IMG/VR virus record: IMGVR_UViG_3300021255_003843
Location: 32,001-96,000 of that record
Reading direction: 5' to 3' (one strand)
Source: a virus
Taxonomy: Duplodnaviria > Caudoviricetes
Length of the DNA: 64,000 nt
Each line of letters starts with the position of its first letter. The stretch's first letter is position 1. The position numbers and the translations under genes were made by a program. A model generated the notes under the pieces. The model did not search any database, had not been told where the DNA came from, and saw only the letters and a list, made by a program, of their open reading frames with translations. Below, piece after piece: positions 30,593 to 63,913 of this stretch.

Positions 30593-30621
30593 TTGACATC
30601 CTCCCTGTGTTTGAGTACAAT
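30593..30621 (+). promoter_or_regulatory. sigmaA-type promoter for opposite-strand orphan gene
   Basis: TTGACA-17 nt-TACAAT, followed by AAGGAGG and ATG at 30649. Confidence 0.75.
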
Positions 30622-30648
30622 AAACGTACTAAAAACAAGGAGGTCTCC

Positions 30649-30982
30649 TATGAACTACAATGATGACCAGGCCGACATCATGAGTATGATCGATAATTTC
30701 AACGAAGAGGAATATTTTAAAACACATGACGTTCCTAAAGCTCAGGATGATCCTAAAGTAATTCTTGCAGAATTCCTTCAGAGATTAGAGTGGGTCTACG
30801 GCGCACGCTTAGGAATCACTGATCCTCGCAAGGCAAAACTCAATGTAGCTAAGCACTTGATGTCTGTAAACAAAAACCTCAGGCCTCACGTCTTATATCC
30901 TGAGTTCTTCAACGGCAACGATTATCCAATTCAATCTGCTTTTGATAAAGAAGCAAATAAAGATACAGAGTATCCGTTCTAA
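30649..30982 (+). CDS. Hypothetical moron-like protein (ends DTEYPF)
   Basis: Own promoter and RBS; opposite strand to the tail operon. Confidence 0.75.
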
Positions 30983-40777: not shown

Positions 40778-40938
40778 TCACTCACCCCCAAAAGGATGCG
40801 CGTAGCTTCTAACTCTTGCTCCAATTCCGCAATGCGATCTTCTAATGTCTTCACGTCGTCGGGTTCGACGATCGCTTCAGCTGCTGCAATCTCAGCCTCT
40901 GTCGCGTCGCGATATGCGCCGTTATCATATATCCTCAT
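40774..40938 (-). CDS. 54-aa coiled-coil protein (ends TRILLGVSE)
   Basis: Below the ORF-track cutoff; GAGGTG RBS; ATGA overlap with the next gene. Confidence 0.7.
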   Translation of the reverse strand: MRIYDNGAYRDATEAEIAAAEAIVEPDDVKTLEDRIAELEQELEATRILLGVSE

Positions 40939-40961
40939 ATGTAACACCTCGTATATTTATT

Positions 40962-42545
40962 TTAACCATCGTCCATGCTGCCTTCGGGGTTCGATGGCTT
41001 AGGTTGTTTGCCGCGCTCAGAAGCGTCGGGGTCCGAGTTGCGTTCTTCGTCCGTCATCTCTGGACGTCCGCCATCGCTATCGTTCGCAGACGTTTGACCA
41101 GCTAAAGCCCGAGGCTGCATTGTTTCGTCAGTACCATCGGCACTCTCTTTGGCACGCTGAGCCTTCTCTTTTTCAAGAGAATAGCCCTGGGTTTCCATCA
41201 TTGTCTTAGTAGATACTAAGCCTTGCGTCCAAAGTTCCTTGCAGACATCGCGAAGCGCTTTGCGGCCATCCATGTCAAGCGGCATAAACTTAAACGAAGG
41301 AACTTGGTTGACGTTATACTTATGCGTTATCGCAAGCTCTTCCTGAATGCAGACATTGATTTTATTCATTAATTCACAGATCTCGTCGCGGGCCGCATCA
41401 ATTCGCATAGATGCAGTTTGCATAGATACCTGCGCCGAAGCGAAAGTGCTGCCGTCTTCGGAAACACCGTTGACGATAATACCGCTGATACCTCCAGCAG
41501 ACAGGATGTCTTTATTGACATCACGATACTTGTCAAATTGGAAGAGGTCATCAAGCTTAGGCTGTATGACGTTTGCTTCCGCGAGCTGGTTAGTAACAGC
41601 GAGCGGAAACTTAGACATCGCGTTGGAAAAGACGTTGCGTACGTCTTTGAGTTCGGTAATATCAGGCAGTATGTCCCGTCCCTTTTGTTTGTCGCCGTAA
41701 GTAACATGAACGAACGAACGGATGCCTAAGTTAAGAATAGCGTTCTCATATTTAGAGATAAGCTCTTTCTTAGCTAAAGCCGGCAAGCATGCCGCAATAA
41801 AAGGAATAGCGTAACGCATCCATCCTTCTTTCGGGCACTGAAGCACCTTCGTATACTTAGGATTCAACTGTGCGTACTGCGCGCCTTTGTTTAAAGCCTC
41901 GAAGACTTCGTCGGGATAGCCGGCGAAATACTGCTGGAGGTTATTGTCTTTGATCCAGTTTTCTCTGACGGTGTAGCTCTTCTGCCGCCACTCATTCAGA
42001 ATTGTCTGGCAATCAAAGTCAACGATCGGTTCGCCATTCAACATCGTGTTGCCGATCTTACAAAGATGGACCGGCAAAGTGATAGGCACACCATGGAAGA
42101 TATAAACAAATACGTTAGAGTATTTCCAATACTCGACAGCGATGCTTTCAAGCTTTTCGCGCAGACGGATCTGTTTATAAAACTCTTCGTATATTTTATT
42201 AGTCTTGTCGTTTGTACCGACAAGGTTCCATGGCGAGCCGATAGTGTACGGCACATAGACATGACGCACGATCCCGCGAACGACGGGATCAGCGTCACAG
42301 TAGTAATCGGAAAGTTTATAGAGGTTAACGATGTTTCTCTGCTTGTCTCTTAATATGGCATCGTAATCGTAACCAACTAGGTTGCCATTAAAAGTAATAT
42401 TGGAATTTGAGAACGATTGATAATCGGTGCGGTCTTCGTCATCTTTAGCGCCGGTCACCGTCTTACCTTTTCTGTCGTTAGCCGGAAGCTGATTCGCCGC
42501 AGCTTCTGCAGGCTTCTGCCTTCTGAAAAGATCAAGGAATCCCAT
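40962..42545 (-). CDS. Portal protein
   Basis: Directly after terminase; ~530 aa; C-terminal GGRP motif; GGAGG RBS before MGFLD. Confidence 0.85.
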   Translation of the reverse strand: MGFLDLFRRQKPAEAAANQLPANDRKGKTVTGAKDDEDRTDYQSFSNSNITFNGNLVGYDYDAILRDKQRNIVNLYKLSDYYCDADPVVRGIVRHVYVPYTIGSPWNLVGTNDKTNKIYEEFYKQIRLREKLESIAVEYWKYSNVFVYIFHGVPITLPVHLCKIGNTMLNGEPIVDFDCQTILNEWRQKSYTVRENWIKDNNLQQYFAGYPDEVFEALNKGAQYAQLNPKYTKVLQCPKEGWMRYAIPFIAACLPALAKKELISKYENAILNLGIRSFVHVTYGDKQKGRDILPDITELKDVRNVFSNAMSKFPLAVTNQLAEANVIQPKLDDLFQFDKYRDVNKDILSAGGISGIIVNGVSEDGSTFASAQVSMQTASMRIDAARDEICELMNKINVCIQEELAITHKYNVNQVPSFKFMPLDMDGRKALRDVCKELWTQGLVSTKTMMETQGYSLEKEKAQRAKESADGTDETMQPRALAGQTSANDSDGGRPEMTDEERNSDPDASERGKQPKPSNPEGSMDDG

Positions 42546-42563
42546 AGGCGATCCAACCTCCAT

Positions 42564-44219
42564 TTAGAAATAAGTGGCAATGCCTACACAAGGCTTGCCT
42601 CTCTGATATTTTTTTATATTATCTTTCTCAAGCTCGCTGATGTAATCATTTCCCATTGCTAAGCTTGAGTATCGGTCTTTATGCATTGAGTTGCGCGGCG
42701 TGTCGTATAAAACGTTACCGCTCGCACCAACCTTGCTGACAATATTGCCCATCTCAAATTGCAAAGCATCGGCCTCGTGAAATATAGCCTTCTCCTCCAT
42801 CCGCATTTGCTGCGAAGGATCCTCGAGCTCAGCCTCAGAGGCTTTAATAATCCGAGAGTCAACAGGCAACTCGATTGTACGTTTCTCTAATGCGACGCGC
42901 AGGTTTGTGTAAATACGCTGGTTCAGCGTCTGCACTGCCCTAAAAGGATGTAGCACAGGTAAAGCCGCCGCGTTCATGTTAGGAGAATCGTCGACGACGA
43001 GAGGCGGGTATTCCTTCCCGCTCACGGAGTCGACCCATTCCTTATCAAAGAAACGGTCGAGACTGTCGCCAAGACCTCTGGCGTCGTAGATGATCTTCTC
43101 GGTATTCGGAAACTTAACATGGTAAAGCTGTCGTAGCTCCTCAGCTAACACGTCTAAGGTTTTGCCGTGGAAGCTTCGTATTAGCACAACCTTCTTGGCA
43201 TAGCTACCGTCGGCTCGCTCAGTAAACTTAATCACTGTGATGATCGAGTTGTCTGCGTCCTTTGCCTCGGAGGTCGCGATATCCAATGAGATAACGTATC
43301 TTGACTTGCTATTCTTAGGTTGTTCAAGCTCAATCTTCTTAAGCGTCCTGCAGCTTTGTGTCAACTCATAAGGGAAGGCTGAGTTATTTTCAGAGCCTAA
43401 GAATTTACATCCGTACTCCATCTGGAAGATGATATCAGGCATGCGAGCTTTCTCGCCCTCAAAGAATTGCGCATCGTTGATGCCATCCGCGATAGCGGTC
43501 TTATAGTCAAGCGCGCAGGCGAACTGCGTTCGGTCGCCCTTCGCCATGCGCTTTACAGTCTCTAAGAAGTTTGAGTAATACTGGTTATTCTTAGCGCACG
43601 CACTCGTAATCGTTACGGTTTTAGATTGAAAATCCTTGAACCCAAATGTTCTTGCATTATACCGTATCTCGTTTCTTGTCGGGGCTACAATCGCCTCAAG
43701 CTTGTCCTGGTCGACATCAAGCGCCTCATCAACAATGACGAGCTTCGCACGTTGGCCGCGAACACTCTCTAGTGCAAGGCTCCGCAGTACGCTGCCATTT
43801 TTCAGCGTACACTGCGAGCCGTTCTTGGAAATCTGAATCAAAGATCTCGCATTCGTCGCGTTGATCTCATTTGCGATATTCGGATTCTGGTCAGCGATCG
43901 ACTTGAGCGTCGTCAGGACTAAGGTAGCCTGAGCCGCCGTCGCCGATACAATCAGTATCTTCGAACCTGGATAAAGGACGCCAACGGCGAATCCAGCGAG
44001 CGCGGCTACGAAAGTTTTGCCGTAGCCGCGCGAGCATGTGTCGTTACTATTGACACAGTTGCCAATCTGTCTAATTAAGACGTGTTGCGTAGGAGAAAGC
44101 TTCACAGGCGCACACGCGTCTTCTATAAAGATGTCTAAGTGTTTGCGGTAGAAGATAATCTGCTCCTCTGCCGCGTCCCAATTTGTGATGACGCCAGGCC
44201 TCACTACTGCCACAGACAC
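42564..44219 (-). CDS. terL: Terminase large subunit
   Basis: Walker A SRGYGKT, RGQRA, Walker B VIVDEA, ITSA, nuclease ISLDIA...D, KDRYSS. Confidence 0.92.
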   Translation of the reverse strand: MSVAVVRPGVITNWDAAEEQIIFYRKHLDIFIEDACAPVKLSPTQHVLIRQIGNCVNSNDTCSRGYGKTFVAALAGFAVGVLYPGSKILIVSATAAQATLVLTTLKSIADQNPNIANEINATNARSLIQISKNGSQCTLKNGSVLRSLALESVRGQRAKLVIVDEALDVDQDKLEAIVAPTRNEIRYNARTFGFKDFQSKTVTITSACAKNNQYYSNFLETVKRMAKGDRTQFACALDYKTAIADGINDAQFFEGEKARMPDIIFQMEYGCKFLGSENNSAFPYELTQSCRTLKKIELEQPKNSKSRYVISLDIATSEAKDADNSIITVIKFTERADGSYAKKVVLIRSFHGKTLDVLAEELRQLYHVKFPNTEKIIYDARGLGDSLDRFFDKEWVDSVSGKEYPPLVVDDSPNMNAAALPVLHPFRAVQTLNQRIYTNLRVALEKRTIELPVDSRIIKASEAELEDPSQQMRMEEKAIFHEADALQFEMGNIVSKVGASGNVLYDTPRNSMHKDRYSSLAMGNDYISELEKDNIKKYQRGKPCVGIATYF

Positions 44220-46041: not shown

Positions 46042-46163
46042 AAATCCTCCCGCCCTTGATCTTAGCACAGACTTGTGCGCAGGTCAAGGGCACTTTTCTG
46101 CCAATTAGCGGATGCGTAAATCCGCTGATGATATATCAACAAAACAAAACAGGAGGAAGAACA

Positions 46164-46502
46164 ATGTTTAACATCAATAACATGTCCCGTAGCTACGATG
46201 CCAACTCAACCGTCTCAAAGAAACACAACAATCCTATTCCTAATTGGCTTCATGCCAAGTTTCTTCTCTGGGGTTATGATCCAATAACCGACGACGAATA
46301 TCTGTTAGGAGAAACAACTGATAAACGCATCGCTCGAAGCTGGGTTAAGGAAATAAAGCGCGATCACTACACTCGAATTGTTGTTGAATTTCCTGGATCC
46401 TATTGCACTACAGCACATGAGCTGCGCTGGTGCGACGCTAAAGCAAATCCTGAAACAGTTTATTTCACTCTAAACGATAAGAGTGAAGAGATTCCATTTT
46501 AA
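46164..46502 (+). CDS. Hypothetical early protein (ends SEEIPF)
   Basis: A-rich leader + AGGAGG, ATG at 46164. Confidence 0.75.
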   Translation: MFNINNMSRSYDANSTVSKKHNNPIPNWLHAKFLLWGYDPITDDEYLLGETTDKRIARSWVKEIKRDHYTRIVVEFPGSYCTTAHELRWCDAKANPETVYFTLNDKSEEIPF

Positions 46503-53571: not shown

Positions 53572-53826
53572 ATGGAAGAAGAGTTCAAAGAAGGAGATCT
53601 TGTCGTCATCAAACAGAGCAAACATTGCTTAGTTGAAGACATCAGACAAGAACATCGCAAAGCATTTGAGATTCTTTGCGCGACGCCGCACGCAGTGAGA
53701 GATTATAAGAAATCATCAAATCTACTTTATGTTCCGGTTCTGGAAGGCAATGCCACAATTGTCTTGAGTCCGGAATGGTTTGAGCACGCTGACGATCCCA
53801 TCGAGAACAATCCTGACCTGTACTGA
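53572..53826 (+). CDS. SH3/KOW-like paralog 1
   Basis: FKEGDLVVIK...WFE...DLY. Confidence 0.75.
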   Translation: MEEEFKEGDLVVIKQSKHCLVEDIRQEHRKAFEILCATPHAVRDYKKSSNLLYVPVLEGNATIVLSPEWFEHADDPIENNPDLY

Positions 53827-53861
53827 CGCCACTTCCCCGCTCCGCCGTTACGCAGACGGGG

Positions 53862-53892
53862 GCGGCCTGAGGACAGGCCGCGCCAGGATGAA
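53862..53892 (+). promoter_or_regulatory. AGGA-loop hairpin motif, copy 4
   Basis: GCGGCCTG-AGGA-CAGGCCGC-GCCAGGATGAA. Confidence 0.7.
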
Positions 53893-53948
53893 GGGTTTGA
53901 CGCCCTTCGGAAATAACAAACGTGCGGCAGAGCCGCGAGGAGGAAATT

Positions 53949-54137
53949 ATGGAGCGTGAATATTTCTTTAACCAGAGCAAAGCTTTTGATCCGACCGCCG
54001 GCTGCGCCCTGAACCGCATCGAAGCGGAGCAGAAAAGAAAAAGGAATAAGGAAGCCTGGCTCGAGATCGCCCGCAAGATGTGTTCTAAGCCTCAGCATCT
54101 CTTTGTTCCGGTAGGTGAACTGGTTGTGAAAGCCTGA
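53949..54137 (+). CDS. Hypothetical small protein
   Basis: GAGGAGG RBS; DPTAG.A...I motif. Confidence 0.65.
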   Translation: MEREYFFNQSKAFDPTAGCALNRIEAEQKRKRNKEAWLEIARKMCSKPQHLFVPVGELVVKA

Positions 54138-54175
54138 TCCCGCCGGGAAAAGAAGCTTGACTTCAGCAACGAAAG

Positions 54176-54206
54176 GCGGCCTGAGGACAGGCCGCGCCAG
54201 GGTGAA
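54176..54206 (+). promoter_or_regulatory. AGGA-loop hairpin motif, copy 5
   Basis: GCGGCCTG-AGGA-CAGGCCGC-GCCAGGGTGAA. Confidence 0.7.
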
Positions 54207-54381
54207 GGGTTATACGGCCCTTGCCCGACGAATCGCAAAACAAAAGCGATTCGTCGCAAAATCAAGACTCGTTACGCGCTGCAGACAAATGCTCCGGCGC
54301 GAAACGATATATTTTGATGCGAAAAGCATCCGACAAAATGGCAGACGCCAAACGCCCACAGGGCAGAAAGAGAGAGAGAGT

Positions 54382-54801
54382 ATGAATAAGCTGTTTATCA
54401 TGGGTCACCTCACCGCCGACGCTACCGTCCGCACCGTCAATGTCGCTGGCGTTCCTACGCCTGTTGCCACCTTCACCGTCGCTGCCAACTATGGACGCCG
54501 CAACGAGAATGGTGACCGCAACGTCCAGTTCGTGCGCTGCACCGCGTGGCGTGAATTCGCCAGCAAGCTCGCGCCGTACCTGAAGAAGGGCACCCAGGTG
54601 GCCGTCGAAGGTCCGTGCCGCGTCTCCGTGTACCAGAGCAACCAGGACCGCACCTGGCGTGGTCAGCTCGAGATCCCGACGATCGAGAGCTTCGAGTTCC
54701 TGAGCGCCCAGAAGAGGGACGAAGCGGCTGAACCCGCAGAAGCGCCCGCTCCTGAGACGCCCGCTGCTCCCGCCGCCGATGACGGCTACCCCTTCGATTA
54801 A
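54382..54801 (+). CDS. ssb: Single-stranded DNA-binding protein
   Basis: MNKLFIMGHLT.D...F.VA.N...F..C.AW...YLKKG.QVAVEG; tail DDGYPFD. Confidence 0.92.
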   Translation: MNKLFIMGHLTADATVRTVNVAGVPTPVATFTVAANYGRRNENGDRNVQFVRCTAWREFASKLAPYLKKGTQVAVEGPCRVSVYQSNQDRTWRGQLEIPTIESFEFLSAQKRDEAAEPAEAPAPETPAAPAADDGYPFD

Positions 54802-54818
54802 TGAAAAGAGGAATCTGA

Positions 54819-54923
54819 ATGGATCCGTATTCTGAGTTCTGTACTGTCGAAGACGCGCTGGACTGGTTCACCGGCGAAGCGCTCTTCGAGCTTCACGAAT
54901 TCGAGGAATCCGAAAACGAATAA
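54819..54923 (+). CDS. 34-aa acidic peptide
   Basis: AAGAGGA RBS; MDPYSEFCTVEDALDWFTGEALFELHEFEESENE; followed by a terminator. Confidence 0.5.
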   Translation: MDPYSEFCTVEDALDWFTGEALFELHEFEESENE

Positions 54924-55080
54924 GGCGGGCTTGTCCCGCCTTTTTATGCAGCGCAGCCCGTCAATGTCGGACAAGCTGTACTTCCAAGAATAAGTGGTTG
55001 AAACCGACCATATTGATAGTTGCCAGGTCAAGTAACTGTTCAATGGGGACAAGCCACTTCATGGGACAACTCCTCCGCGC

Positions 55081-55123
55081 GCCGAGACGCCCTCCTCCTC
55101 CTGGGGCGTCTCGGCTTATTTTT
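55081..55123 (+). terminator. Terminator with C-rich loop
   Basis: GCCGAGACGCCC-TCCTCCTCCTG-GGGCGTCTCGGC-TTATTTTT. Confidence 0.7.
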
Positions 55124-55198
55124 CGTCAGCGAAGTCTTTTGAAGGCCGCCGTCTGGCCCGGACCGCAATAACTTGTATTATCGAATCGGAGGCGGAAG

Positions 55199-55489
55199 AT
55201 GACTGAACAGGCGCGTGGTTTCAAAGAAGGCGATCTGGTTGTTGTAAAGCCAGAATATGCAGATGTGATGTACGAAGCATACAAACACCTCATATTGTAC
55301 GGTACGCCTAAGTCTAAGCTTGGTAAAAACATTGCTCTCGGAGAACCCGCTATCGTTCTTCGCGTTTGGGATGACGAAATGTGGATAACCGACAAAGATG
55401 ACAGAACGGGAGAATTCATTGCACCTCTAACGCAATGGTTTACGTTTTATAAAAATAAAGCAATGGATGCAATTGATCATCTCCTGTAG
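55199..55489 (+). CDS. SH3/KOW-like paralog 2
   Basis: FKEGDLVVVKPEY...WF...IDHLL. Confidence 0.8.
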   Translation: MTEQARGFKEGDLVVVKPEYADVMYEAYKHLILYGTPKSKLGKNIALGEPAIVLRVWDDEMWITDKDDRTGEFIAPLTQWFTFYKNKAMDAIDHLL

Positions 55490-55499
55490 GAGGATTAAA

Positions 55500-55781
55500 A
55501 TGAGTAGTTTTGAAATTGGCGACATCGTAGTCGTCAAGCCAGAATATGCCTCATCCTTCAGAAACATATACGAAGGGCATGAGAGTTTGTTCAATAGACA
55601 TAAAGTTCGCTTCGGAATCAGCGTTTCGGAAGGCGCACCAGCGCGTGTCGTGCATACCACTTATGACGGCATCGACCTGACCGATCTCGACAATACACTC
55701 AGCCCCAACTCCTGGCTCTGCACCGAGAGAGAATGGTTTGAGCTCTATCAAGAGCGAGGACCGATCGAGCAGCTCTTGTGA
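55500..55781 (+). CDS. SH3/KOW-like paralog 3
   Basis: FEIGDIVVVKPEY...WFELY...IEQLL. Confidence 0.8.
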   Translation: MSSFEIGDIVVVKPEYASSFRNIYEGHESLFNRHKVRFGISVSEGAPARVVHTTYDGIDLTDLDNTLSPNSWLCTEREWFELYQERGPIEQLL

Positions 55782-55788
55782 GGTAACT

Positions 55789-56112
55789 ATGGATTATTTT
55801 CACGTTGGAGATATCGTCGTAGTAAAGCCTGAATATAGCGAAGAGCTGATAAGAAGCTATTCGTCTGGCTACAGCGACGCAAAATGCAAATTTGGTCGCG
55901 CTGTTGCGCGTGGCGCTCCAGCCAAGGTCGTCCACTGTCACAAAAGCGAAATTGTCAAAGTGTCAGACTACACGAAAGAGTATCTAACTTTTGGTGGCAG
56001 CAGCGGATGGCTAACAGATCTTGAGGAAACGCTGCAATGCGAGGATTATTTGCACCTAAGCAGCGCCTACTTTGACCTTTATATGCCTCCGATACCTGAT
56101 GGTCTGCTGTAG
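55789..56112 (+). CDS. SH3/KOW-like paralog 4
   Basis: FHVGDIVVVKPEY...YFDLY...DGLL. Confidence 0.8.
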   Translation: MDYFHVGDIVVVKPEYSEELIRSYSSGYSDAKCKFGRAVARGAPAKVVHCHKSEIVKVSDYTKEYLTFGGSSGWLTDLEETLQCEDYLHLSSAYFDLYMPPIPDGLL

Positions 56113-56122
56113 GAGTTTTATA

Positions 56123-56365
56123 ATGTGTTATGTGCATGAAATAGAAACGTTTCACGAAGGTGAAATCGTCGAAATGACAGACCATGTGAAAAAGTTACCA
56201 CGACTAAAAGAAGCCCGTATTTTACAGGATGACAAATTCCTAATAAAAGATGTAGGCGTAAACGGTATTTTAAAAATACAGAATATAAGAAACAACGAAG
56301 ATTACTATGTCAAAAACATTTCATTGCAGCACATAGTTCCTGAAGTTGAAACATGTCTTCTGTAG
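56123..56365 (+). CDS. SH3/KOW-like paralog 5
   Basis: FHEGEIVEM...ETCLL. Confidence 0.7.
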   Translation: MCYVHEIETFHEGEIVEMTDHVKKLPRLKEARILQDDKFLIKDVGVNGILKIQNIRNNEDYYVKNISLQHIVPEVETCLL

Positions 56366-56678
56366 GAGCGCCCATGCCAACATCAGTGTATCAGCCGGAC
56401 CAGTTTGTCGTCGCGCTGCTGTAATTATTGCGTGCCCCTTTGATCATCACCCGTGCAAATCGGGCAGGGGCTATACTCAACCTCCTTTCTGGACGCTGGC
56501 AAGCCGTCCAATGAAGCTTGCCAACAGGTTTGCGGTACTCGCCTGCCCTAATATAAAAAACCGTTGTGAGTAGACAGTCATGGCAGTGTGTCTGCAAGTC
56601 CCGGGAGTCCTCCAAGTGCAGGTAAATGCATAGCCTCGAACTCCCGGGGCGGACGTTCTATTTTGAAAGGAGACGCTC

Positions 56679-57134
56679 ATGCTGAGATTTGTCAAAGGTG
56701 ATTTGCTTGAAGCAAAAGAAGATTTCATCTGCCATCAGGTCAACTGCATGAGCGCAATGGGCTCAGGCATTGCTAACCAGATCGCGGACAAATGGCCTCA
56801 AGTAAAAACACTGTATTTATCAAAATGCCAGATGTTTGATGACAGAAGACTTCTGTTGGGCAAAGTTCAGTCTATAAAAATCGATGAACATCAATACGTA
56901 CTGAATATTTTCAGCCAGTATACTTATGGCAGCGACAAAAATACGGTCTATACAAACTATCCAGCTTTGCAGAAAGCGTTGTATCTGGCTCGTTTGCCTG
57001 ATAAAAGCTATGCTTTTCCGTACCACTTTGGATGCGGCTTAGCGAACGGCGACTGGACAACTGTTCGTTCGCTAATTGAGAAAATACTGGCCTATGACCA
57101 CGAAGTTGTTATTTACAAGAGGTACGCCACATGA
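56679..57134 (+). CDS. Macrodomain protein (Poa1p/TARG1-like ADP-ribose hydrolase family)
   Basis: KGDLL...ICHQVNC...MGSGIA..I...P...N.FSQ...T.Y...FP..FGCGLANGDW. Confidence 0.88.
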   Translation: MLRFVKGDLLEAKEDFICHQVNCMSAMGSGIANQIADKWPQVKTLYLSKCQMFDDRRLLLGKVQSIKIDEHQYVLNIFSQYTYGSDKNTVYTNYPALQKALYLARLPDKSYAFPYHFGCGLANGDWTTVRSLIEKILAYDHEVVIYKRYAT

Positions 57135-57400
57135 AAGGAAACGCTAAGCTATACAAACCAGGCGACGAAGTGTTCGTCTCCGACGATATTATGTATATGA
57201 ATACCAGTGACGGCGTAGGCATTGCAGAAGCGATGAAAACAATGGCCGGCCAACGTCTGACAATCAAAGCTATTTCCGATGGATATCCGAAGTGTGGCTT
57301 GTGTTATATCGTAAAAGAAAATACTTTCTTATGGCAGGATGAAATGTTGGAGCCCATTAGCAACATTGACATGACCGCCATGGACAGCCTGCTTTTATGA
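57131..57400 (+). CDS. SH3/KOW-like paralog 6
   Basis: YKPGDEVFV...MAG..LTI...WQDEMLEP...DSLLL. Confidence 0.8.
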   Translation: MKGNAKLYKPGDEVFVSDDIMYMNTSDGVGIAEAMKTMAGQRLTIKAISDGYPKCGLCYIVKENTFLWQDEMLEPISNIDMTAMDSLLL

Positions 57401-57410
57401 GGTAATAACT

Positions 57411-57692
57411 ATGTTTCAAGAAGGAGATCTCGTCGTAGCGAAAAACCCGGCAAGAATGCGAGAAACATATAAAGATTGGGCCAAACGATACCCGGATGAA
57501 CGCATCAAGTATGAACTCGGGCTGAAATTTGCTGACGGTGCGCCTCTTGAAATTATCAGGATGAGAGGAGCCACCGGCGTAGTTCTCGGCCCAGTTGGTT
57601 CGTCATGCACAGACAACGACAAAACGCTCTGGCTCAACTCAGGCGATCTTGCGCTTTGCGACGACATGCAGCCTGTGTCTGATTTATTGTGA
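57411..57692 (+). CDS. SH3/KOW-like paralog 7
   Basis: FQEGDLVVAK...VSDLL. Confidence 0.8.
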   Translation: MFQEGDLVVAKNPARMRETYKDWAKRYPDERIKYELGLKFADGAPLEIIRMRGATGVVLGPVGSSCTDNDKTLWLNSGDLALCDDMQPVSDLL

Positions 57693-57699
57693 GGTAGCT

Positions 57700-57909
57700 A
57701 TGTTTCGAGTAGGCGATATAGCAATAGCCAATGAACGCGCCAAAGGCGTTTATTCAATAACCAAGCCAGGCTGGATCGGCACAGTTATCAGGGTTTATCC
57801 TGGTTTCATTACAGTAGCCGGAAAAGAAGGCAATTTCACTGTATGTTCGGAACACTTCGATCTTTATAAGGATCCTCTTGATATCAAAGACATCTCGCGG
57901 TTGATATGA
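57700..57909 (+). CDS. SH3/KOW-like paralog 8
   Basis: FRVGDIAIAN..A...Y.IT..GW.G.V...HFDLY...SRLI. Confidence 0.8.
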   Translation: MFRVGDIAIANERAKGVYSITKPGWIGTVIRVYPGFITVAGKEGNFTVCSEHFDLYKDPLDIKDISRLI

Positions 57910-57917
57910 CCGCATAT

Positions 57918-57990
57918 GGCCTCTTAGCTCAGCCGGTAGAGCAGCTGACTGTTAATCAGCCGGTCGCGCGTTCAAATCGCGCAGAGGCCT
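57918..57990 (+). tRNA. tRNA-Asn(GUU)
   Basis: Acceptor GGCCTCT/AGAGGCC, D arm GCTC/GAGC, anticodon arm GCTGA-CT GTT AA-TCAGC, T loop TTCAAAT; no encoded CCA. Confidence 0.92.
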
Positions 57991-58162
57991 CGTCGGGACG
58001 ATCTGCCGGAAAATGGCGCAGATCACGCGCAACGCTGTTGGAACAGAAGGCTTGGGTTGCGCAACTTGTCAGCAAAAGAAATATCTATAGTTTTTAGCCA
58101 TTTCCATGCCTTGCTTACAGCTGACAGCCCTGCCGCTGGGGTCATAATACAGCGGATTTTAT

Positions 58163-58355
58163 GGAGACTTAGCTCAACTGGGAGAGCGCCAGCGTTGCTC
58201 AGCGTAGGTCAGATGTATAGTCAGGAACTGACCAAAGCGTTTCGGCTCGGCAATATAACTCACCCCGTGATATTAAACGTTGCCATATTTTGTTGAGGAC
58301 AGAATAAGCGGATGCACGCAAGAGGTCGGCGATTCGAACCCGCCAGTCTCCACCA
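58163..58355 (+). ncRNA. tRNA-Ala(UGC)-derived RNA with 117-nt structured insertion at the anticodon
   Basis: Acceptor GGAGACT/AGTCTCC-ACCA, D arm and T loop intact; removing 58199..58315 gives exactly 76 nt with a TGC anticodon. Confidence 0.8.
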
Positions 58356-58454
58356 GGTGCTGCCTTACAGGGGGCAGTATGCCGGAGTCATGACCGGCAC
58401 TTCTGTACGTCGTTTTGGCACCGGTTTGGGCGCTATAATCTAACTGGTGCACGT

Positions 58455-58528
58455 GGGGATTTAGCTCATCAGGTCAGAGCAGCGCTCTTATAAAGCGCAG
58501 GTGCATGGTTCAAGTCCATGAATCCCTA
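58455..58528 (+). tRNA. tRNA-Ile(UAU)
   Basis: GGGGATT/AATCCCT acceptor, GCGCT-CT TAT AA-AGCGC anticodon arm, CATGG-TTCAAGT-CCATG T arm, A73. Confidence 0.9.
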
Positions 58529-58601
58529 TTTGCCCGTGACCATGGAAACACGGGCAAGACGCATCGCCTCTTTAAAATATAGCCGGCGTGTCCGGCTATA
58601 T

Positions 58602-58673
58602 AGGGGAGTAGCCAAACGGAAAGGCACGGGACTTTGACTCCCGCATGTGAAGGTTCAACTCCTTCCTCCCCTG
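58602..58673 (+). tRNA. tRNA-Gln(UUG)
   Basis: AGGGGAG/CTCCCCT acceptor, CGGGA-CT TTG AC-TCCCG, GAAGG-TTCAACT-CCTTC, G73. Confidence 0.92.
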
Positions 58674-58694
58674 CTACGAAATCAAGGAGCTTAT

Positions 58695-58943
58695 ATGGCG
58701 TGTAAATTCAAACCCGGCGACGTGATCGTCGGCAACGATCTCGCTGACGAACGTTACTTTATCACTAACAAAGGCTGGATCGGTCAGGTCATTTCTGTAA
58801 GCCGGGACTGCTTTAGCGCAAAAACGCTTTACAAAAGCGGCAAGCTTGGCACACTTTTTCCTGCCCTTGGTTACGAATACTTTAACGTGCTCGAACCAGA
58901 ATTCGACGCCAAGCATATTAAACAGATGGCAATGATATTATAG
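58695..58943 (+). CDS. SH3/KOW-like paralog 9
   Basis: FKPGDVIVGN..A...Y.IT.KGWIG.V...YF...AMIL. Confidence 0.8.
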   Translation: MACKFKPGDVIVGNDLADERYFITNKGWIGQVISVSRDCFSAKTLYKSGKLGTLFPALGYEYFNVLEPEFDAKHIKQMAMIL

Positions 58944-58953
58944 GAGCGACCGT

Positions 58954-59196
58954 ATGCTGTCACAAACAAAATTTCAGATAGGCGATTATGTGATCGGCAC
59001 AAAGGAAGCTACCGCGCACTATGCGATCACAAAAGAGGGCTGGACCGGTCAGATAACGGAAATACGGAAATATACTATCATGGTGTACGGCAAAGACAAC
59101 TGTGACCGTGACAGATGGTTCGAAGTAGAGCCTAAATATTTTGAATCATGTGATTCGCAAAATTTCAATCAGAACGAGTTTCAGCAGATATTGTAG
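58954..59196 (+). CDS. SH3/KOW-like paralog 10
   Basis: FQIGDYVIGT..A...Y.IT..GW.G.I...YFE...QQIL. Confidence 0.8.
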   Translation: MLSQTKFQIGDYVIGTKEATAHYAITKEGWTGQITEIRKYTIMVYGKDNCDRDRWFEVEPKYFESCDSQNFNQNEFQQIL

Positions 59197-59205
59197 GGAG
59201 AAACC

Positions 59206-59442
59206 ATGGATCGCAACACTCGATATAAAGTAGGCGACATCGTGCGGTGCTATCGGAAGTTTATTGATGTTCCGGAAGAAACGCTGTTCGAAATTGTCCA
59301 AGTAAACGCCTATTCTTATTATACTACATATCTCATCACGCCGGCCACGATGGATGGCAAGCGTTATTATGTTCGCGCGGAAAGTATTCGCAAGGCGAGC
59401 GTGAACGATTTTGACAAGCGGAAAATTAAAACTCTGCTGTAA
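59206..59442 (+). CDS. SH3/KOW-like paralog 11
   Basis: YKVGDIVRC...KTLL. Confidence 0.8.
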   Translation: MDRNTRYKVGDIVRCYRKFIDVPEETLFEIVQVNAYSYYTTYLITPATMDGKRYYVRAESIRKASVNDFDKRKIKTLL

Positions 59443-59451
59443 GGAGACAAC

Positions 59452-59784
59452 ATGTTTAGTCCATTGAATTATTCGCCGGAAGATCTGTTCGATGACGAAA
59501 ACAAAGACGGCCTCGACAGCGAGCGCTTTGTCGTCGGCGACAGTGTATACATTCATCCGGACCTGCGCGAAACCGACAAGGGTGCGTCCGTGACGGAAGA
59601 TATGCTCAACTATGCCGGTTCGCTTGCCAGAATCGTGAGAGTGCTGGGCAACTCGTATAAGCTCGATGTTGATGATGCAGACTGGGTCTGGGATGATTAC
59701 TGTCTTCTGAGTCAGAATGAGTTCGCGCAATATATTACTGGCGTTGCCAAGGTAGAAATCAAACGGCTGGAGGGCTTGATATGA
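59452..59784 (+). CDS. SH3/KOW-like paralog 12
   Basis: FVVGDSVYIHPDL...M..YAG...Y.LD....W.DYCL...EGLI. Confidence 0.8.
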   Translation: MFSPLNYSPEDLFDDENKDGLDSERFVVGDSVYIHPDLRETDKGASVTEDMLNYAGSLARIVRVLGNSYKLDVDDADWVWDDYCLLSQNEFAQYITGVAKVEIKRLEGLI

Positions 59785-60086
59785 GCTACGATATCTTCGA
59801 CATTCACAACGAAGAGGGCATATGCGCCAAATTGTTCGATGTTGGTGATAAAGTAATCATCCGTTCTGACATCAGACCGACCAATAAACACCCGACGATC
59901 ACATCGCAAATGGCGGCCTTGGCAGGCAAAGAAGGTACCGTTGTCCGTAAAAACGGTGACGCTTCTTATCTTCTTGATATTTCAGGAGGCGAATACGGCT
60001 ACGTCTGGTGCGATTACTGTTTCGAGCCTCCGGACACAGGCGCTGCTAATTCACAAATAACCGAGTCTATGCCGGTTCTGCTGTAA
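59781..60086 (+). CDS. SH3/KOW-like paralog 13
   Basis: FDVGDKVIIRSDI...M..LAG...Y.LD...W.DYCFEP...PVLL. Confidence 0.8.
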   Translation: MSYDIFDIHNEEGICAKLFDVGDKVIIRSDIRPTNKHPTITSQMAALAGKEGTVVRKNGDASYLLDISGGEYGYVWCDYCFEPPDTGAANSQITESMPVLL

Positions 60087-60287: not shown

Positions 60288-60893
60288 ATGATTTCTATCA
60301 CCCTGCTCACCAATGCTGGCCGTCAGACTACTCCCGTGTCCGAAGATACCTCTATCCGCGAAGTGCTGGATTCCAAGCACATCAACTATGCCGCCTCCGT
60401 CGTTCAGCTGGATGGCTGCGCGCTGCGCCCCGGCGACATGGATAAGACCTTCGCCGAAATGGGCATCAAAGACAGCTGCTATCTGACAGCCGTCGTTAAG
60501 GCGGATAATGCTGCCAAGGTCACCGTGGTTGGCGAAGCCGCCGTTGTCACCTCCGCGCTGAAGCTGGCAGACATCAAGACCGCCAAGAAGTATCGCCCGG
60601 AAGCCTTGGAGCTGAAGAAGGACAAGGATGTCATCTTCGCTGTTGACACCACTGATCGTTCCGCCGGCTCCATCAATATCCACGGCGCAACCTTCTCCAA
60701 CGCCACGGACGCTGATGGCTATGCCACCATCACCATGACCGTGGATCGCGGCGAGGATGTTGAGAAGACTCTGCTCGATAAGATCGGCATGGGCCTGCTG
60801 CTGTTGAATCAGGTCGAGGAAGCCTTCGGCGAACAGCTGGCGTCCATCCAGGCTGATCAGGCGAAGATCAAGTCTCTGATCGACATCAAGTAA
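60288..60893 (+). CDS. Ubiquitin-like (beta-grasp) domain (aa 1-75, ending KADNA) fused to a ~126-aa C-terminal domain
   Basis: Ubl-like pattern: I.ITL...TSIREVL...V.LDG..L...DMDKTFAEMGI...CYL..VVK; first gene of the E2/JAB/E1 operon. Confidence 0.75.
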   Translation: MISITLLTNAGRQTTPVSEDTSIREVLDSKHINYAASVVQLDGCALRPGDMDKTFAEMGIKDSCYLTAVVKADNAAKVTVVGEAAVVTSALKLADIKTAKKYRPEALELKKDKDVIFAVDTTDRSAGSINIHGATFSNATDADGYATITMTVDRGEDVEKTLLDKIGMGLLLLNQVEEAFGEQLASIQADQAKIKSLIDIK

Positions 60894-60975: not shown

Positions 60976-62385
60976 ATGTTCGGAAATACGTTTAATGAAA
61001 TCAAATATTTTGGCGACGCGTTCGCCGAACAACACGAGAAGTTGAGCAGGATCACGCAGCGCGGAAATTATCAGAATGATAAGACGATGCTGGCGTTTGC
61101 ACGAGCCCTTCTATTTAACAGGCTCCCGGAAGGCGAAACCTTCTCCATCAATATCTACCCCATCGACAGCCCGATCTATCAGGACATGATGGACCATCCA
61201 AAGGAGAAGGACGAGCTGCACAATCAGCTGTTCGTTTTCTACAAGGAAGACGATACAATCGACGAAGCGCAGGTCAACGCGTTCTACGCCAAGTATCCTA
61301 CGTTCCATATCATGCAGCAGCATATGGACTTCTTCTCATCGTGCGCAAAAGCCTGGTGCTACAACGATACTGAGAACATTTCCGCCATCCTGTTTCTGCA
61401 GGAAGCGAATGTGCGCAAGATGCACCTGCTGTTCTCCATGCTCTCCGCCTACTTCAAGCCTCTGTGCCCGGTCATGACCGGCTATGAGAAGACAGATTTC
61501 TGCCCGTCCATGACCAAGCGCGCTTCTCAGCCCTTTGAGGAGTGCATGGCTCACCTGGCGCATGAGTATGGCATCGATCAGGAGTATATGGCGTTCATGA
61601 TCCGGAACTACACCCGGAACAACGTACGTGTCGTTATCGATCAGGCTGAACGCACTCTGGCTGAACGGCGGGACACGCTGCAGCGTAATATCGAAGAGTA
61701 CACTAATCTATACCGCGCTTTCAAGCAGGCTTCTGATAACGTTGAACTGCTGAAATCTCGCCCCGTCGAAGAAGATACAGAGCTCGTAGATTTCTTCAAG
61801 GCACATAAGAATATCAGGCTGTTCGACGTCAGCGGCGATATGCTCAAGTTCTATGTACTGGGTACTCTTGAGTGGTTTGATCTTGAATTCTATCATCGCG
61901 CGGCGAGGAACGATAATGCCATCTACCGCATCAACGCGCCACGGGCTTTCTCTGAGCTGGAAGACCGCAAACTGTTGATGGACGCCATCTTCTCCGATGA
62001 TCCGATTTTCAAAATCCGCATGTGCTCATCCTATGGTCTGTCTATCACCGGCGATGTGGACGTCTGGGCTAACTATAACTATCCCGCGGATATACTTAAG
62101 CAGTATATTCCGAATCCGCATATTCAGTATCACCGCTGCCTCGGCGACCATCGTGATCCGATCCGCCGCGCGCTGAGAGACAATAACATGCCGCTCGCCA
62201 TCGAGCAGTGTATCGCCTCCGCTCAGTCCGTCAATATTGCGGAGCGCAGCGTCACCTTCGATCCGTTCATGAAGAACGTATTCAGCTCCACAAACAAGAT
62301 TCTGGTGGATATGAAAGGCAAAGAATATACGCCCGTCGAGGCTCTGAAATATCTGAAAAAGAAAGCGCAGGCTGAGAGCAAATGA
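60976..62385 (+). CDS. Putative prokaryotic E2-like conjugating enzyme with N-terminal domain and coiled coil
   Basis: C-terminal PNPHIQYHRCLG (xPH...CLG, Cys388); operon context. Confidence 0.65.
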   Translation: MFGNTFNEIKYFGDAFAEQHEKLSRITQRGNYQNDKTMLAFARALLFNRLPEGETFSINIYPIDSPIYQDMMDHPKEKDELHNQLFVFYKEDDTIDEAQVNAFYAKYPTFHIMQQHMDFFSSCAKAWCYNDTENISAILFLQEANVRKMHLLFSMLSAYFKPLCPVMTGYEKTDFCPSMTKRASQPFEECMAHLAHEYGIDQEYMAFMIRNYTRNNVRVVIDQAERTLAERRDTLQRNIEEYTNLYRAFKQASDNVELLKSRPVEEDTELVDFFKAHKNIRLFDVSGDMLKFYVLGTLEWFDLEFYHRAARNDNAIYRINAPRAFSELEDRKLLMDAIFSDDPIFKIRMCSSYGLSITGDVDVWANYNYPADILKQYIPNPHIQYHRCLGDHRDPIRRALRDNNMPLAIEQCIASAQSVNIAERSVTFDPFMKNVFSSTNKILVDMKGKEYTPVEALKYLKKKAQAESK

Positions 62386-63230
62386 AAACGATAAAGATCA
62401 CGGAAGCCGATAAGGCCGCCATCAGGGAAGAGTTTGAGAAAACTCTGGCTGATTACCGGCTTCCGAACGGCGAGTTCAAGTTTACAAAATCCTTCGCCGC
62501 CCGCAAAGCGGCGAAGGATGAGCGCATCACGCTCTATTATACGCCGGACGCATATCTGAAGATCACCGCTCTGGTGAACAAGTTCGATACAGAGGTAGGC
62601 TGGCATGGTCTCGTCCGTAAGGTAGACGATAAGACTTACCTGATCTATGACATCCTGGTCTATAAGCAGGAGGTCACCGGCGCAACCGTCAACACGGATC
62701 AGGATGAGTATGTCGAATTCCTGAAGAATCTCACCGACGAGCAGGCCGAGCATATGTTCTATCACGGCCACAGCCATGTCAATATGGGTGTGTTCGCCTC
62801 CTCTGTGGATATGGATCACCGCGCACGCCTGATCCAGTGTGCTGATGAAAACGGTTTCTGGATTTTTCAAATTTGGAACAAACGTAAGGAAGTTTCGACC
62901 GTACTCTATGACCTCGCCAATAATGTTCTGTATGACTCGGATGACATCGATATGACCGTCCTGTTCGCGGACGGCTCCGACGTTACGGAGTTCACTGCGA
63001 ACGCGGATAAGCTCGTCGTAAAAAAAAATACCTTGCCCGCTCAGGTCAAGATCGACAGCAAGTGGTCGGGCGGCTCTTACAATACCGCGCAAAAAGAGCC
63101 CGAAAAGTCCAAAAAGGCAGAAAAAGCTAAGGATAAGAAGAAGTACGAGGACTATGACGACGACCTGATTGACGATGGCACTAAGCCTTATGGCTATGGC
63201 TATGGTTACGGGTATGGCTACAATTACTAA
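62382..63230 (+). CDS. JAB/MPN+ (JAMM) metallopeptidase
   Basis: EVGWHG...HSH-x7-S-x2-D (HSHVNMGVFASSVD); acidic and YG-repeat tail. Confidence 0.9.
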   Translation: MKTIKITEADKAAIREEFEKTLADYRLPNGEFKFTKSFAARKAAKDERITLYYTPDAYLKITALVNKFDTEVGWHGLVRKVDDKTYLIYDILVYKQEVTGATVNTDQDEYVEFLKNLTDEQAEHMFYHGHSHVNMGVFASSVDMDHRARLIQCADENGFWIFQIWNKRKEVSTVLYDLANNVLYDSDDIDMTVLFADGSDVTEFTANADKLVVKKNTLPAQVKIDSKWSGGSYNTAQKEPEKSKKAEKAKDKKKYEDYDDDLIDDGTKPYGYGYGYGYGYNY

Positions 63231-63241
63231 GGAGAGAAGAC

Positions 63242-63913
63242 ATGGATCTTTCTAAATCCTATGAATTCTTCCAGCCTTCCATGTGCGACGGCCGCATCCA
63301 CATCATCGGATGCGGCTCCGTCGGCTCTACAGTGGCGGAACTGCTGGTTCGCTACGGCCTGACCAATATCACGCTCTATGATTTTGATCATGTCGAGGCT
63401 CACAACATCGCTAATCAGATGTTCGATAGTACCGACATCGGCAAGGAAAAGGTCACAGCCGTGGCCGATCATCTGATCGCTATCAATCCGGAGCTGCGGG
63501 ACACTCTGCGCATCGCCGATAAGGGCTATACAAATCAGAAGCTCTCCGGCTATGTATTCCTGTGTGTCGACAATATCGACCTTCGACGCAAGATCGCCGA
63601 GGAAAACAGGAACAATGTATTTATCAAGGCGATGTTCGATTTCAGGACCCGCCTGACCGACGCCCAGCACTACGCTGCGGATTGGTCTGACGAAAAGCAC
63701 AAGGAAGCCTTCATCAATTCTATGCAATTCTCGCACGAGGAGGCGTCCAAGGAGACGCCTATGTCCGCCTGCCATGTCACCCTCAGTGTGGCGGCGACAG
63801 TGCGCCTGATCTGCACCTACGGGGTCGTCAACTTCATTGACTTCCTCAAGAAAGGGACCCTCAAGAAGACCGTACTCATCAACACAGAGCTCTGGGACTT
63901 GATGGGTATCTAA
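63242..63913 (+). CDS. ThiF/E1-like adenylyltransferase
   Basis: IIGCGSVGS, DFDHVEAHNIANQ, GKEKV.A, CVDN...R; candidate catalytic Cys in SACH. Confidence 0.92.
   Translation: MDLSKSYEFFQPSMCDGRIHIIGCGSVGSTVAELLVRYGLTNITLYDFDHVEAHNIANQMFDSTDIGKEKVTAVADHLIAINPELRDTLRIADKGYTNQKLSGYVFLCVDNIDLRRKIAEENRNNVFIKAMFDFRTRLTDAQHYAADWSDEKHKEAFINSMQFSHEEASKETPMSACHVTLSVAATVRLICTYGVVNFIDFLKKGTLKKTVLINTELWDLMGI

Follow-up and report, generated by a model that had tools for sequence, protein, structure and literature searches.

Organization of the array

A window of 64,000 nucleotides (nt), corresponding to bases 32001-96000 of the 105,495-bp phage contig IMGVR_UViG_3300021255_003843 (IMG/VR, about 95% complete), carries on its + strand, between positions 53572 and 60086, an array of 13 open reading frames (ORFs) encoding mini-proteins of 69-110 amino acids (aa). 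Each of them joins a small variable body to a hydrophobic C-terminal tail, and the array stands directly upstream of an operon for a ubiquitin-like protein (Ubl), an E2-like protein, a JAB/JAMM peptidase and a minimal E1 (Table 1). The phage under study is designated G000 hereafter, other G and L codes referring to related records and loci. An earlier note on this DNA had listed the 13 ORFs with their C-termini, and all of them are present. Its placing of the array directly upstream of the operon holds for the position but has to be corrected in that an SSB gene, a macrodomain gene and three tRNA genes interrupt the series. The last member ends 201 nt before the start of the Ubl gene.

Besides the array, six more small tail-bearing ORFs occur elsewhere in the genome (genome positions 10711, 11563, 16569, 21198, 22450, which ends in SLF, and 22950), and the whole genome has 19 tail-bearing small proteins. 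The bodies encoded at 10711 and 11563 are devoid of the G-D motif described below and are not SH3-like.

The C-terminal tail

Twelve of the 13 members end in [LIM][LI] and one ends in LY. Based on the amino-acid frequencies of the genome, the dipeptide [LIM][LI] has a probability of 0.024, and the probability of at least 12 occurrences among 13 proteins is 4e-19. The last codons vary (CTC, CTG, CTT, TTA, TTG and ATA) and the conservation therefore lies at the protein level, as the earlier note had argued. A hydrophobic residue is kept at position -5 as well, so that the local motif reads Phi-x-x-L-[LI]-COOH, where Phi is hydrophobic. Between G000 and its L003 orthologues, identity reaches 0.90 over the last five residues, compared with 0.70 over the preceding ten residues and 0.70 over the body; the L003 orthologue of member 1 retains PDLY. 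In the AlphaFold2 (AF2) model of member 13, a beta-barrel core is predicted with a confidence score (pLDDT) of 76-86, whereas tail residues 87-98 score below 50; the tail follows a linker, is modelled at low confidence and is not packed on the barrel.

Such a shared end could be devoid of function, either as a by-product of nucleotide constraint (ribosome-binding site or translational coupling) or as the last structural element of the fold. Indeed, the genes are only 7-13 nt apart and the Shine-Dalgarno sequence of the next gene (GAGG/GGAG) lies at the stop codon. However, this sequence overlaps the stop codon or follows it (for example CTG-TAG-GAGG, TTG-TGA-GGT) and is thus off the Leu codons, which themselves vary, and the tail is retained in members followed by a gap of 200-1370 nt; ribosome binding and translational coupling were rejected as causes of the tail on these grounds. 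The tail is also found on unrelated folds, with different trailing residues in other phages, and its modelled position away from the barrel does not fit a structural element. A non-functional end is consequently extremely unlikely.

The motif becomes wider when related phages are considered. Relatives were collected via TerL, the E2-like protein and the E1, ten records being analyzed whole, two in part and about 90 as 20-kb loci. Across them, the motif is [DE]-Phi-x-x-[LM]-[LIF] followed by 0-12 trailing residues, and the terminal dipeptide is its local form. In G004, the closest relative, SH3 genes end in DDFLKLL, EEFTAMLP, SEFFQML, TEFEAMLL, EEFEGMLV, KHFQMLGG and AEFLSLL, following a pattern EFxxML(x), with 12 motif matches for 1.8 expected. 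Nine genes of G006 have a different, non-SH3 body and all end in D[FI]x[DSE]LL. The tails of G001, G005 and G007 read [DE][DE]-Phi-x-x-[LMI]-[LIF] followed by 2-5 residues, and 16 genes of L107 end in D[VI]xxLL-COOH. Other versions are FEDELMxLLGG (L111), [IL]DxILNx (L090), ELxxLLEA (L091), SFDDLLKG with 1-12 further residues (L165) and ATSEELMNLLL. The trailing residues of homologous tails are often polar, as in MLP, MLGG, ILKG, LLD, LLEA and LLKGAAQ. The earlier claim of a hydrophobic dipeptide at the very end is thus true of the phage under study and not of its relatives, in which 1-12 residues may follow the motif.

Two features of these versions bear on the way the tail may be read. Firstly, tails are uniform within one phage and different between phages, as expected of a co-evolving reader. 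Secondly, the same tail stands on non-SH3 bodies, namely those encoded at genome positions 10711 and 11563, the nine G006 genes, and L082 proteins of 271 and 217 aa. Together with the trailing residues, this points to a portable short linear motif rather than a degron recognized by its free carboxylate. A reader of the free C-terminus, such as a ClpX/ssrA-type degron receptor or a PDZ-type site, is unlikely because of the residues that follow the motif in relatives, and the degron tail suggested by the earlier note is not borne out.

The bodies and their fold

The N-terminal motif F/Y-x-x-G-D-x-V noted earlier is well conserved, G8 being invariant and D9 nearly invariant across the array. Also as proposed, about three subfamilies can be distinguished, BLASTP delineating clusters A, B and C besides singletons (Table 1). 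Profile comparison by hhalign links these clusters with probabilities of 91% (B-C), 88% (A-C) and 66% (A-B), so that the term diversified paralogues is reasonable, but for an old divergence.

None of the 13 members matches Pfam at E-values up to 1, PHROGs returned unnamed families only, for cluster C, and member 13, the sole member run through PADLOC, gave no match there. Homology to a known domain was obtained through intermediate sequences, for cluster C only. Its profile, A2, retrieves 6035 proteins from a representative set of 1.84 billion, mostly tandem repeats of the domain, among which are proteins matching Pfam SH3_15 (PF18346, the Mind bomb SH3 repeat), such as P0005 (7e-9) and P0009 (1e-9). 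P0007 contains eight SH3_15 repeats (2.7e-73) fused to an ADP-ribosyltransferase. In line with this, Foldseek aligns the model of member 13 with L21e, 4xi7, 4tse, YorP, KOW and Tudor structures at modest E-values of 7e-3 to 3e-2. The match to the MZM-REP domains of Mind bomb (4xi7) has a query-normalized TM-score (TMq) of 0.56 and a root-mean-square deviation (rmsd) of 2.3 Å, and that to the Mind bomb repeat 4tse a TMq of 0.54. The PDB title of 4xi7 describes MZM-REP domains in complex with a Jagged1 peptide. The SH3/KOW-like reading of the earlier note is therefore directly supported for cluster C, by fold and SH3_15 relatives, and extends to clusters A and B by hhalign similarity.

The tail is not a general attribute of this domain, as it is present in 10 of the best 150 A2 matches and most SH3_15-like repeat proteins are devoid of it. 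Among the relatives gathered first, all SH3 homologues that could be detected bear a tail.

Association of arrays with the Ubl operon

The link to the Ubl operon, which rested on adjacency in the earlier note, is now strengthened by arrays flanking the operon in many diverged phages, by tail-bearing genes following the E1 gene and by joint absence. Arrays flank the operon in G000, G004, G006, G001, G005/G007, L087, L090, L091, L107, L111, L165 and others. Over 80 E1 loci, the motif occurs 275 times for 99 expected, and 36 loci contain at least three occurrences; the count of 275 is an undercount, since the motif expression misses the L165-type version. In at least eight loci (L081, L082, L084, L085, L087, L116, L119 and L176), a tail-bearing gene directly follows the E1 gene, and in L080 one directly precedes the Ubl gene. 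L080, L081, L082, L084 and L085 were found by the SH3 profile and not by the operon. P0023 is encoded directly upstream of a Ubl gene. The tail-bearing gene after E1 has a non-SH3 body in L087, L116 and L119, as does a second such gene in the L082 operon.

In the four complete relatives without operon (G002, G008, G023 and G024), SH3 genes could not be detected and the motif stays at chance level. Conversely, five operon-bearing relatives are devoid of arrays, as detailed below. In phyletic profiling, the genes of the Ubl operon come closest to the distribution of tails, a 219-aa ORF, the endolysin and a fibre protein matching in part.

This distribution also bears on the idea that the tail is a label for loading proteins into the virion (capsid interior or cargo proteins) for injection, in the manner of the T4 capsid-targeting sequences or encapsulin cargo peptides. 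Such a role is very unlikely, as the tail-bearing genes lie in the early and replication strand block outside the structural module, are associated with the Ubl operon and not with structural genes, and are missing from relatives that keep these structural genes.

The neighbouring Ubl system

As judged from sequence and modelled structure, the neighbouring operon is a genuine Ubl system. In the predicted Ubl protein, a conserved K-x-D-N-A-A junction connects a beta-grasp domain with a domain of about 125 aa at the C-terminus. Its beta-grasp model aligns with SUMO and ubiquitin over 72-76 columns (Foldseek; rmsd 2.7-3.3 Å, target-normalized TM-score, TMt, 0.55-0.68). In L082 (1718-2512) and L093 (9121-9838), each part has a gene of its own, with the order reversed, and the beta-grasp encoded by itself has 75-76 aa and ends in KADCA (L082) or KADNAA (L093). 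No C-terminal Gly was found on the Ubl, neither at the K-x-D-N-A-A junction nor at these stand-alone ends. A likeness between the tails and the C-terminal end of the Ubl protein was considered and set aside, the latter being judged part of a long structural helix.

The E2-like protein gave a weak Atlas lead to Prok-E2_D (0.81) and has no Pfam or PADLOC match. In L082, a 252-aa ORF that is homing endonuclease-like by eye stands between the Ubl and E2 genes. A retron-type reverse transcriptase (RT) gene follows E1 in nearly all relatives, and at least 156 IMG/VR contigs contain the Ubl-E2-JAB-E1-RT unit. The E1 proteins end in a variable stretch of 10-12 hydrophobic and acidic residues (NTELWDLMGI, NTETWDVLAL, DAFNFMLDAF); its loose likeness to the tails, seen by eye, is too weak to use. 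This stretch recalls the minimal E1 UBA5, whose C-terminal peptides bind Ubl and E2.

Table 1. Array members, interrupting genes and operon genes (window positions unless marked as genome positions)
Feature	Position	Strand	Length (aa)	Tail	Description
Member 1	53572..53826	+	84	NNPDLY	weak cluster A
SSB gene	54388..54801	+			non-member, interrupts array; Pfam SSB 1.4e-16
Member 2	55199..55489	+	96	AIDHLL	cluster A
Member 3	55500..55781	+	93	PIEQLL	cluster A
Member 4	55789..56112	+	107	IPDGLL	cluster A
Member 5	56123..56365	+	80	VETCLL	singleton body; ATG at 56123
DarG-like macrodomain gene	56679..57134	+			non-member, within array; PADLOC DarG 4.4e-16; phrog_335 8.6e-35
Member 6	57131..57400	+	89	MDSLLL	cluster C (SH3_15-related)
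Member 7	57411..57692	+	93	PVSDLL	weak cluster A
Member 8	57700..57909	+	69	DISRLI	cluster B
Three tRNA genes (Asn, Ile-tat, Gln)	57918..58674	+			within array
Member 9	58695..58943	+	82	QMAMIL	cluster B
Member 10	58954..59196	+	80	EFQQIL	cluster B
Member 11	59206..59442	+	78	KIKTLL	weak cluster C
Member 12	59452..59784	+	110	RLEGLI	cluster C
Member 13	59781..60086	+	101	SMPVLL	cluster C; folded by AF2
Ubl protein	60288..60893	+			beta-grasp (residues 1-70), flexible conserved DNAA linker, C-terminal domain; AF2 pLDDT 86.7
E2-like protein	60976..62385	+	469		candidate tail reader; invariant NPH-x5-C-x-G (alignment)
JAB/JAMM peptidase	62382..63230	+			invariant E71, H130-S-H132, S140, D143; weak PADLOC JAB match
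Minimal E1 (ThiF)	63242..63913	+			Pfam ThiF 4e-22; PADLOC CBASS E1-E2 (Cap2) models best, 5e-20
Retron-type RT after E1	genome 95931-97121 (L007:931-2121)				PADLOC RT_II-A 2.9e-44

Alternatively, the tails themselves may be substrates of E1, E2 and JAB. Their C-termini would be attached to target proteins in the way that Cap2 attaches CD-NTases in type II cyclic oligonucleotide-based antiphage signalling systems (CBASS), and in some phages the JAB peptidase would trim the trailing residues. The best scores of this E1 against the CBASS E1-E2 (Cap2) models would fit such a scheme, as would the disordered and terminal nature of the tails. Some tails, in L111, G004 and G001, end in LLGG or in LLGG followed by 1-3 residues, like Ubl precursors, and pre-processing of fused Ubls by a JAB peptidase is documented for Bil systems (bioRxiv 10.1101/2023.09.26.559546). 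However, a beta-grasp Ubl whose conserved end, KADNA/A, is unlike the tails is already encoded in the operon, and the tails of G000, G006 and L107 end in Leu-Leu with no small residue. Moreover, Gly is not uniformly placed before the trailing residues and a Gly after the motif could merely cap a helix. Conjugation of the tails is thus quite unlikely.

A putative adaptor system

Tails are found only in operon-bearing relatives and sometimes inside the operon, and the mini-proteins are therefore probably interchangeable target-binding adaptors. The favoured explanation, to which a probability of about 40% is given, is that they act as modular adaptors of an E3-like or receptor-like kind and dock on some component of the Ubl system of the phage. 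According to this proposal, each of the 13 genes encodes a small SH3-like binding module followed by a short flexible linker and the portable motif, which in G000 is trimmed to Phi-x-x-L-L at the very C-terminus. The fast-diverging bodies would presumably each have a target of their own, host or defence proteins being the most plausible, whereas the tail, uniform within a phage, would be recognized by a single reader. This reader would most likely be a component of the neighbouring module of Ubl, E2-like protein, JAB, E1 and retron-type RT, the candidates being the Ubl, the N-terminal region of the E2-like protein, the E1, the JAB peptidase and the RT. The mini-proteins may then act either as E3-like receptors for the E2 or as receptors for the Ubl resembling those with an LC3-interacting region (LIR) or a SUMO-interacting motif (SIM). 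The earlier note had proposed variable recognition domains with a shared docking tail. Its anatomy is confirmed, with SH3-like variable bodies, a linker and a conserved disordered tail that also occurs on unrelated bodies, and the E3-like adaptor role receives support in part.

Several observations weigh against a functional link with the operon. The operon is present without an array in G003, in G019 and in the records behind L089, L093 and L094, and so does not need arrays. As it occurs in 17 of the 23 long contigs of the phage clade, the statement that all array phages have the operon is statistically weak (p about 0.1), and shared descent confounds it. Both arrays and operon belong to a single variable early region, for which joint gain and loss are expected without any functional link. 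In addition, six tail-bearing genes of the phage stand at a distance from the operon, in the neighbourhood of genes for RNA ligase and NAD salvage. No phage gene matched the distribution of tails exactly in phyletic profiling, and similarity of tail fibre and endolysin follows a similar pattern, which also fits a reader encoded by the host. Lastly, the first motif position in the phage is mostly aliphatic, compared with the aromatic residue of canonical LIRs.

Several of these points also fit docking of the tail on a hub of the host, for instance a protease unfoldase (ClpX/ClpC or HslV), the sliding clamp or the divisome. In this view, the mini-proteins would be host-takeover or anti-defence adaptors, and their adjacency to the operon would reflect only a shared variable early region. 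The tail-bearing genes are scattered among genes for RNA ligase, HAD RNA-repair, NAD synthase, NMNAT, NAPRTase, a DarG-like macrodomain and tRNAs, and the fibre and endolysin similarity common to several tail-bearing phages is as expected for a host-specific reader. The ClpX adaptor SspB has the same layout of a domain, a linker and a C-terminal peptide as the mini-proteins, and the phage itself encodes a ClpP. On the other hand, this view is not favoured by the eight loci in which the gene that immediately follows E1 within the operon bears a tail, phage ClpP does not track the tails, and the 1-12 trailing residues argue against readers of the free carboxylate. The clamp is not favoured by the sequence of the tails, in which no Gln is placed as in its motif. 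Indeed, none of the tails fits the beta-clamp motif QL[SD]LF, Q being at position -3 where present and the spacing being that of Phi-x-x-L-L. A host hub is accordingly rather unlikely, and docking on the phage Ubl system is preferred to it.

If this preferred docking is extended to relatives, the widespread group of phages of about 100-150 kb (at least 156 E1 contigs) may aim its own Ubl conjugation with a fast-evolving set of exchangeable SH3 mini-adaptors via a phage-specific LIR-like tail, a generalization that is put forward tentatively.

Comparison with known systems

The REP SH3 repeats of Mind bomb are the substrate-recognition modules of an E3 ligase. The relatives of cluster C are SH3_15 proteins and the model of member 13 superposes on MZM-REP, but the array proteins fall below Pfam thresholds, are single-domain proteins of 69-110 aa with a tail, and contain no RING or ligase domain. 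Another small SH3-like barrel of phage origin is YorP from the SPbeta prophage of Bacillus subtilis (PDB 2heq).

Several autophagy receptors carry a C-terminal LIR. The same type of motif is found on unrelated proteins and, like the phage tail, places acidic residues before Phi-x-x-[LIM], as is also the case for the Atg8-interacting motif (AIM) and the SIM. Ubl-binding LIR motifs follow the pattern acidic-[WFY]-x-x-[LIV], link cargo-binding domains to a Ubl and can stand at the C-terminus, as in ATG4B (PMC7615515). Among the phages, EEFEGML and TEFEAML of G004 fit cores resembling [WFY]-x-x-[LIV], and an aromatic F at position 0 is found in the tails of G004, G006, L087 and L165. In the window, only EFQQIL has an aromatic residue at this position, the others having I, V, M or L, mostly one of the first three, and the extra conserved Leu at +4 is a further difference from LIR motifs. 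Acidic residues just upstream of the motif are consistent in G004, G006, L111 and L091 and partial in the window tails. The phage Ubl is SUMO/ubiquitin-like by fold, and Atg8-type pockets on it are only putative.

By their organization, the arrays resemble the F-box, SOCS-box and poxvirus ankyrin-PRANC families, which comprise many paralogues with a variable recognition domain and one conserved C-terminal docking element and include expansions in virus genomes. Nevertheless, the tail is a motif of 5-10 residues, whereas these boxes are folded elements of 40 aa with no sequence relation to it, and the tail would pair with an E2, Ubl or E1 of prokaryotic type instead of Skp1 or cullin.

The operon is comparable to BilABCD and CBASS Cap2/Cap3 in possessing a beta-grasp Ubl, an E2-like protein with a Cys, a JAMM peptidase and a ThiF E1. 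It differs from them as it is encoded by a phage and coupled to a retron-type RT, as its Ubl ends in DNA/A and not in Gly, and as its E2-like protein has about 300 extra N-terminal residues. Neither Bil nor CBASS has a known adaptor family, and the absence of a known E3 adaptor is reported for Bil (bioRxiv 10.1101/2023.09.26.559546).

SspB and ssrA-like degrons share with the mini-proteins the succession of a domain, a flexible linker and a short hydrophobic C-terminal peptide. They differ in that relatives of the mini-proteins tolerate 1-12 trailing residues, in that the flanks are acidic and not basic, and in that phage ClpP does not co-occur with the tails.

Target choice by bacterial Ubl systems (Bil, CBASS Cap2/Cap3), for which no substrate adaptors are known, is an open question, and no description of phage Ubl operons with SH3 adaptors was found in the literature. 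If the generalization to the phage group is true, prokaryotic and phage Ubl systems would gain, with these arrays, their first targeting layer of an E3-like or cargo-receptor-like kind. Docking of the tail on the Ubl machinery would reveal a way for a virus to redirect protein tagging towards many host factors, the SH3 bodies being a direct handle for finding the targets. Even with a host reader, the motif would define a new short linear motif system in phages. In either case, a phage Ubl relative and a diversifying SH3 family of peptide-binding type stand together across many lineages and changing gene orders, with a portable tail whose form is specific to each phage.

Genome setting

The - strand of the genome holds the structural genes, one of which encodes 5453 aa, and the + strand holds early, replication and accessory genes. 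The latter include genes for ThyX, NrdD, PhoH, ClpP, RNA ligase, a HAD RNA-repair domain, NAD synthase, NMNAT, NAPRTase, an integrase and a primase-helicase, besides a DnaE fragment at the contig end. The array site belongs to the + strand block and lies between the SSB gene and the Ubl-E2-JAB-E1 operon, which runs on into the retron-type RT gene. The macrodomain gene inside the array reaches 18.3 bits against Pfam Macro (0.0022), which is below the 22-bit cut-off. With this DarG-like macrodomain, the tRNAs, the RNA ligase, the HAD repair domain and the NAD-salvage genes, the + block resembles a counter-defence region.

Searches for context outside the collected relatives were negative. The macrodomain used as a probe for related loci gave no match, nor did TerL against bacterial and archaeal genomes, in which prophages or a host were sought. 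In an annotated phage collection, the region has no DNA match, and at the protein level cluster C has one marginal match and cluster A none.

The ClpP-family protease (genome 8017-8661, L005:8017-8661) matches Pfam at 3.8e-25 and has Ser, His and Asp at the expected positions by eye. Its gene adjoins that of PhoH in the early block, outside the head module, and is kept in most relatives independently of tails. As a reader of the tails, this ClpP was rejected, since it is present in the tail-less G002, G003 and G008 and was not found in the tail-bearing G007. No phage-encoded sliding clamp was found among the larger early proteins scanned. The DnaE-like protein resembles, by eye, the PHP domain of DnaE at its N-terminus and comprises 1058 aa in G004 (L038:805-3981, corresponding to G004 40805-43981), the gene of the contig under study being broken by the contig end (L005:64-609).

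A second class of C-terminal tail, in which PF comes after acidic residues in the manner of the SSB tail, is carried by at least five proteins of the phage. Within the window, it is found on the SSB itself (DDGYPFD), at 46056-46502 (EEIPF) and at 30593-30982 (TEYPF); outside the window, it ends the primase-helicase (L007:6972-8855, GEQPF) and the product of L005:613-951 (LFEPFE). The primase-helicase orthologue of G004 ends in GAPF.

In several relatives, the TerL match is broken by two to three stop codons, as in G002 (L009:2001-3638) and G006 (L012:2001-3647). An intron, an intein, a frameshift or the insertion of a homing endonuclease could account for this interruption.

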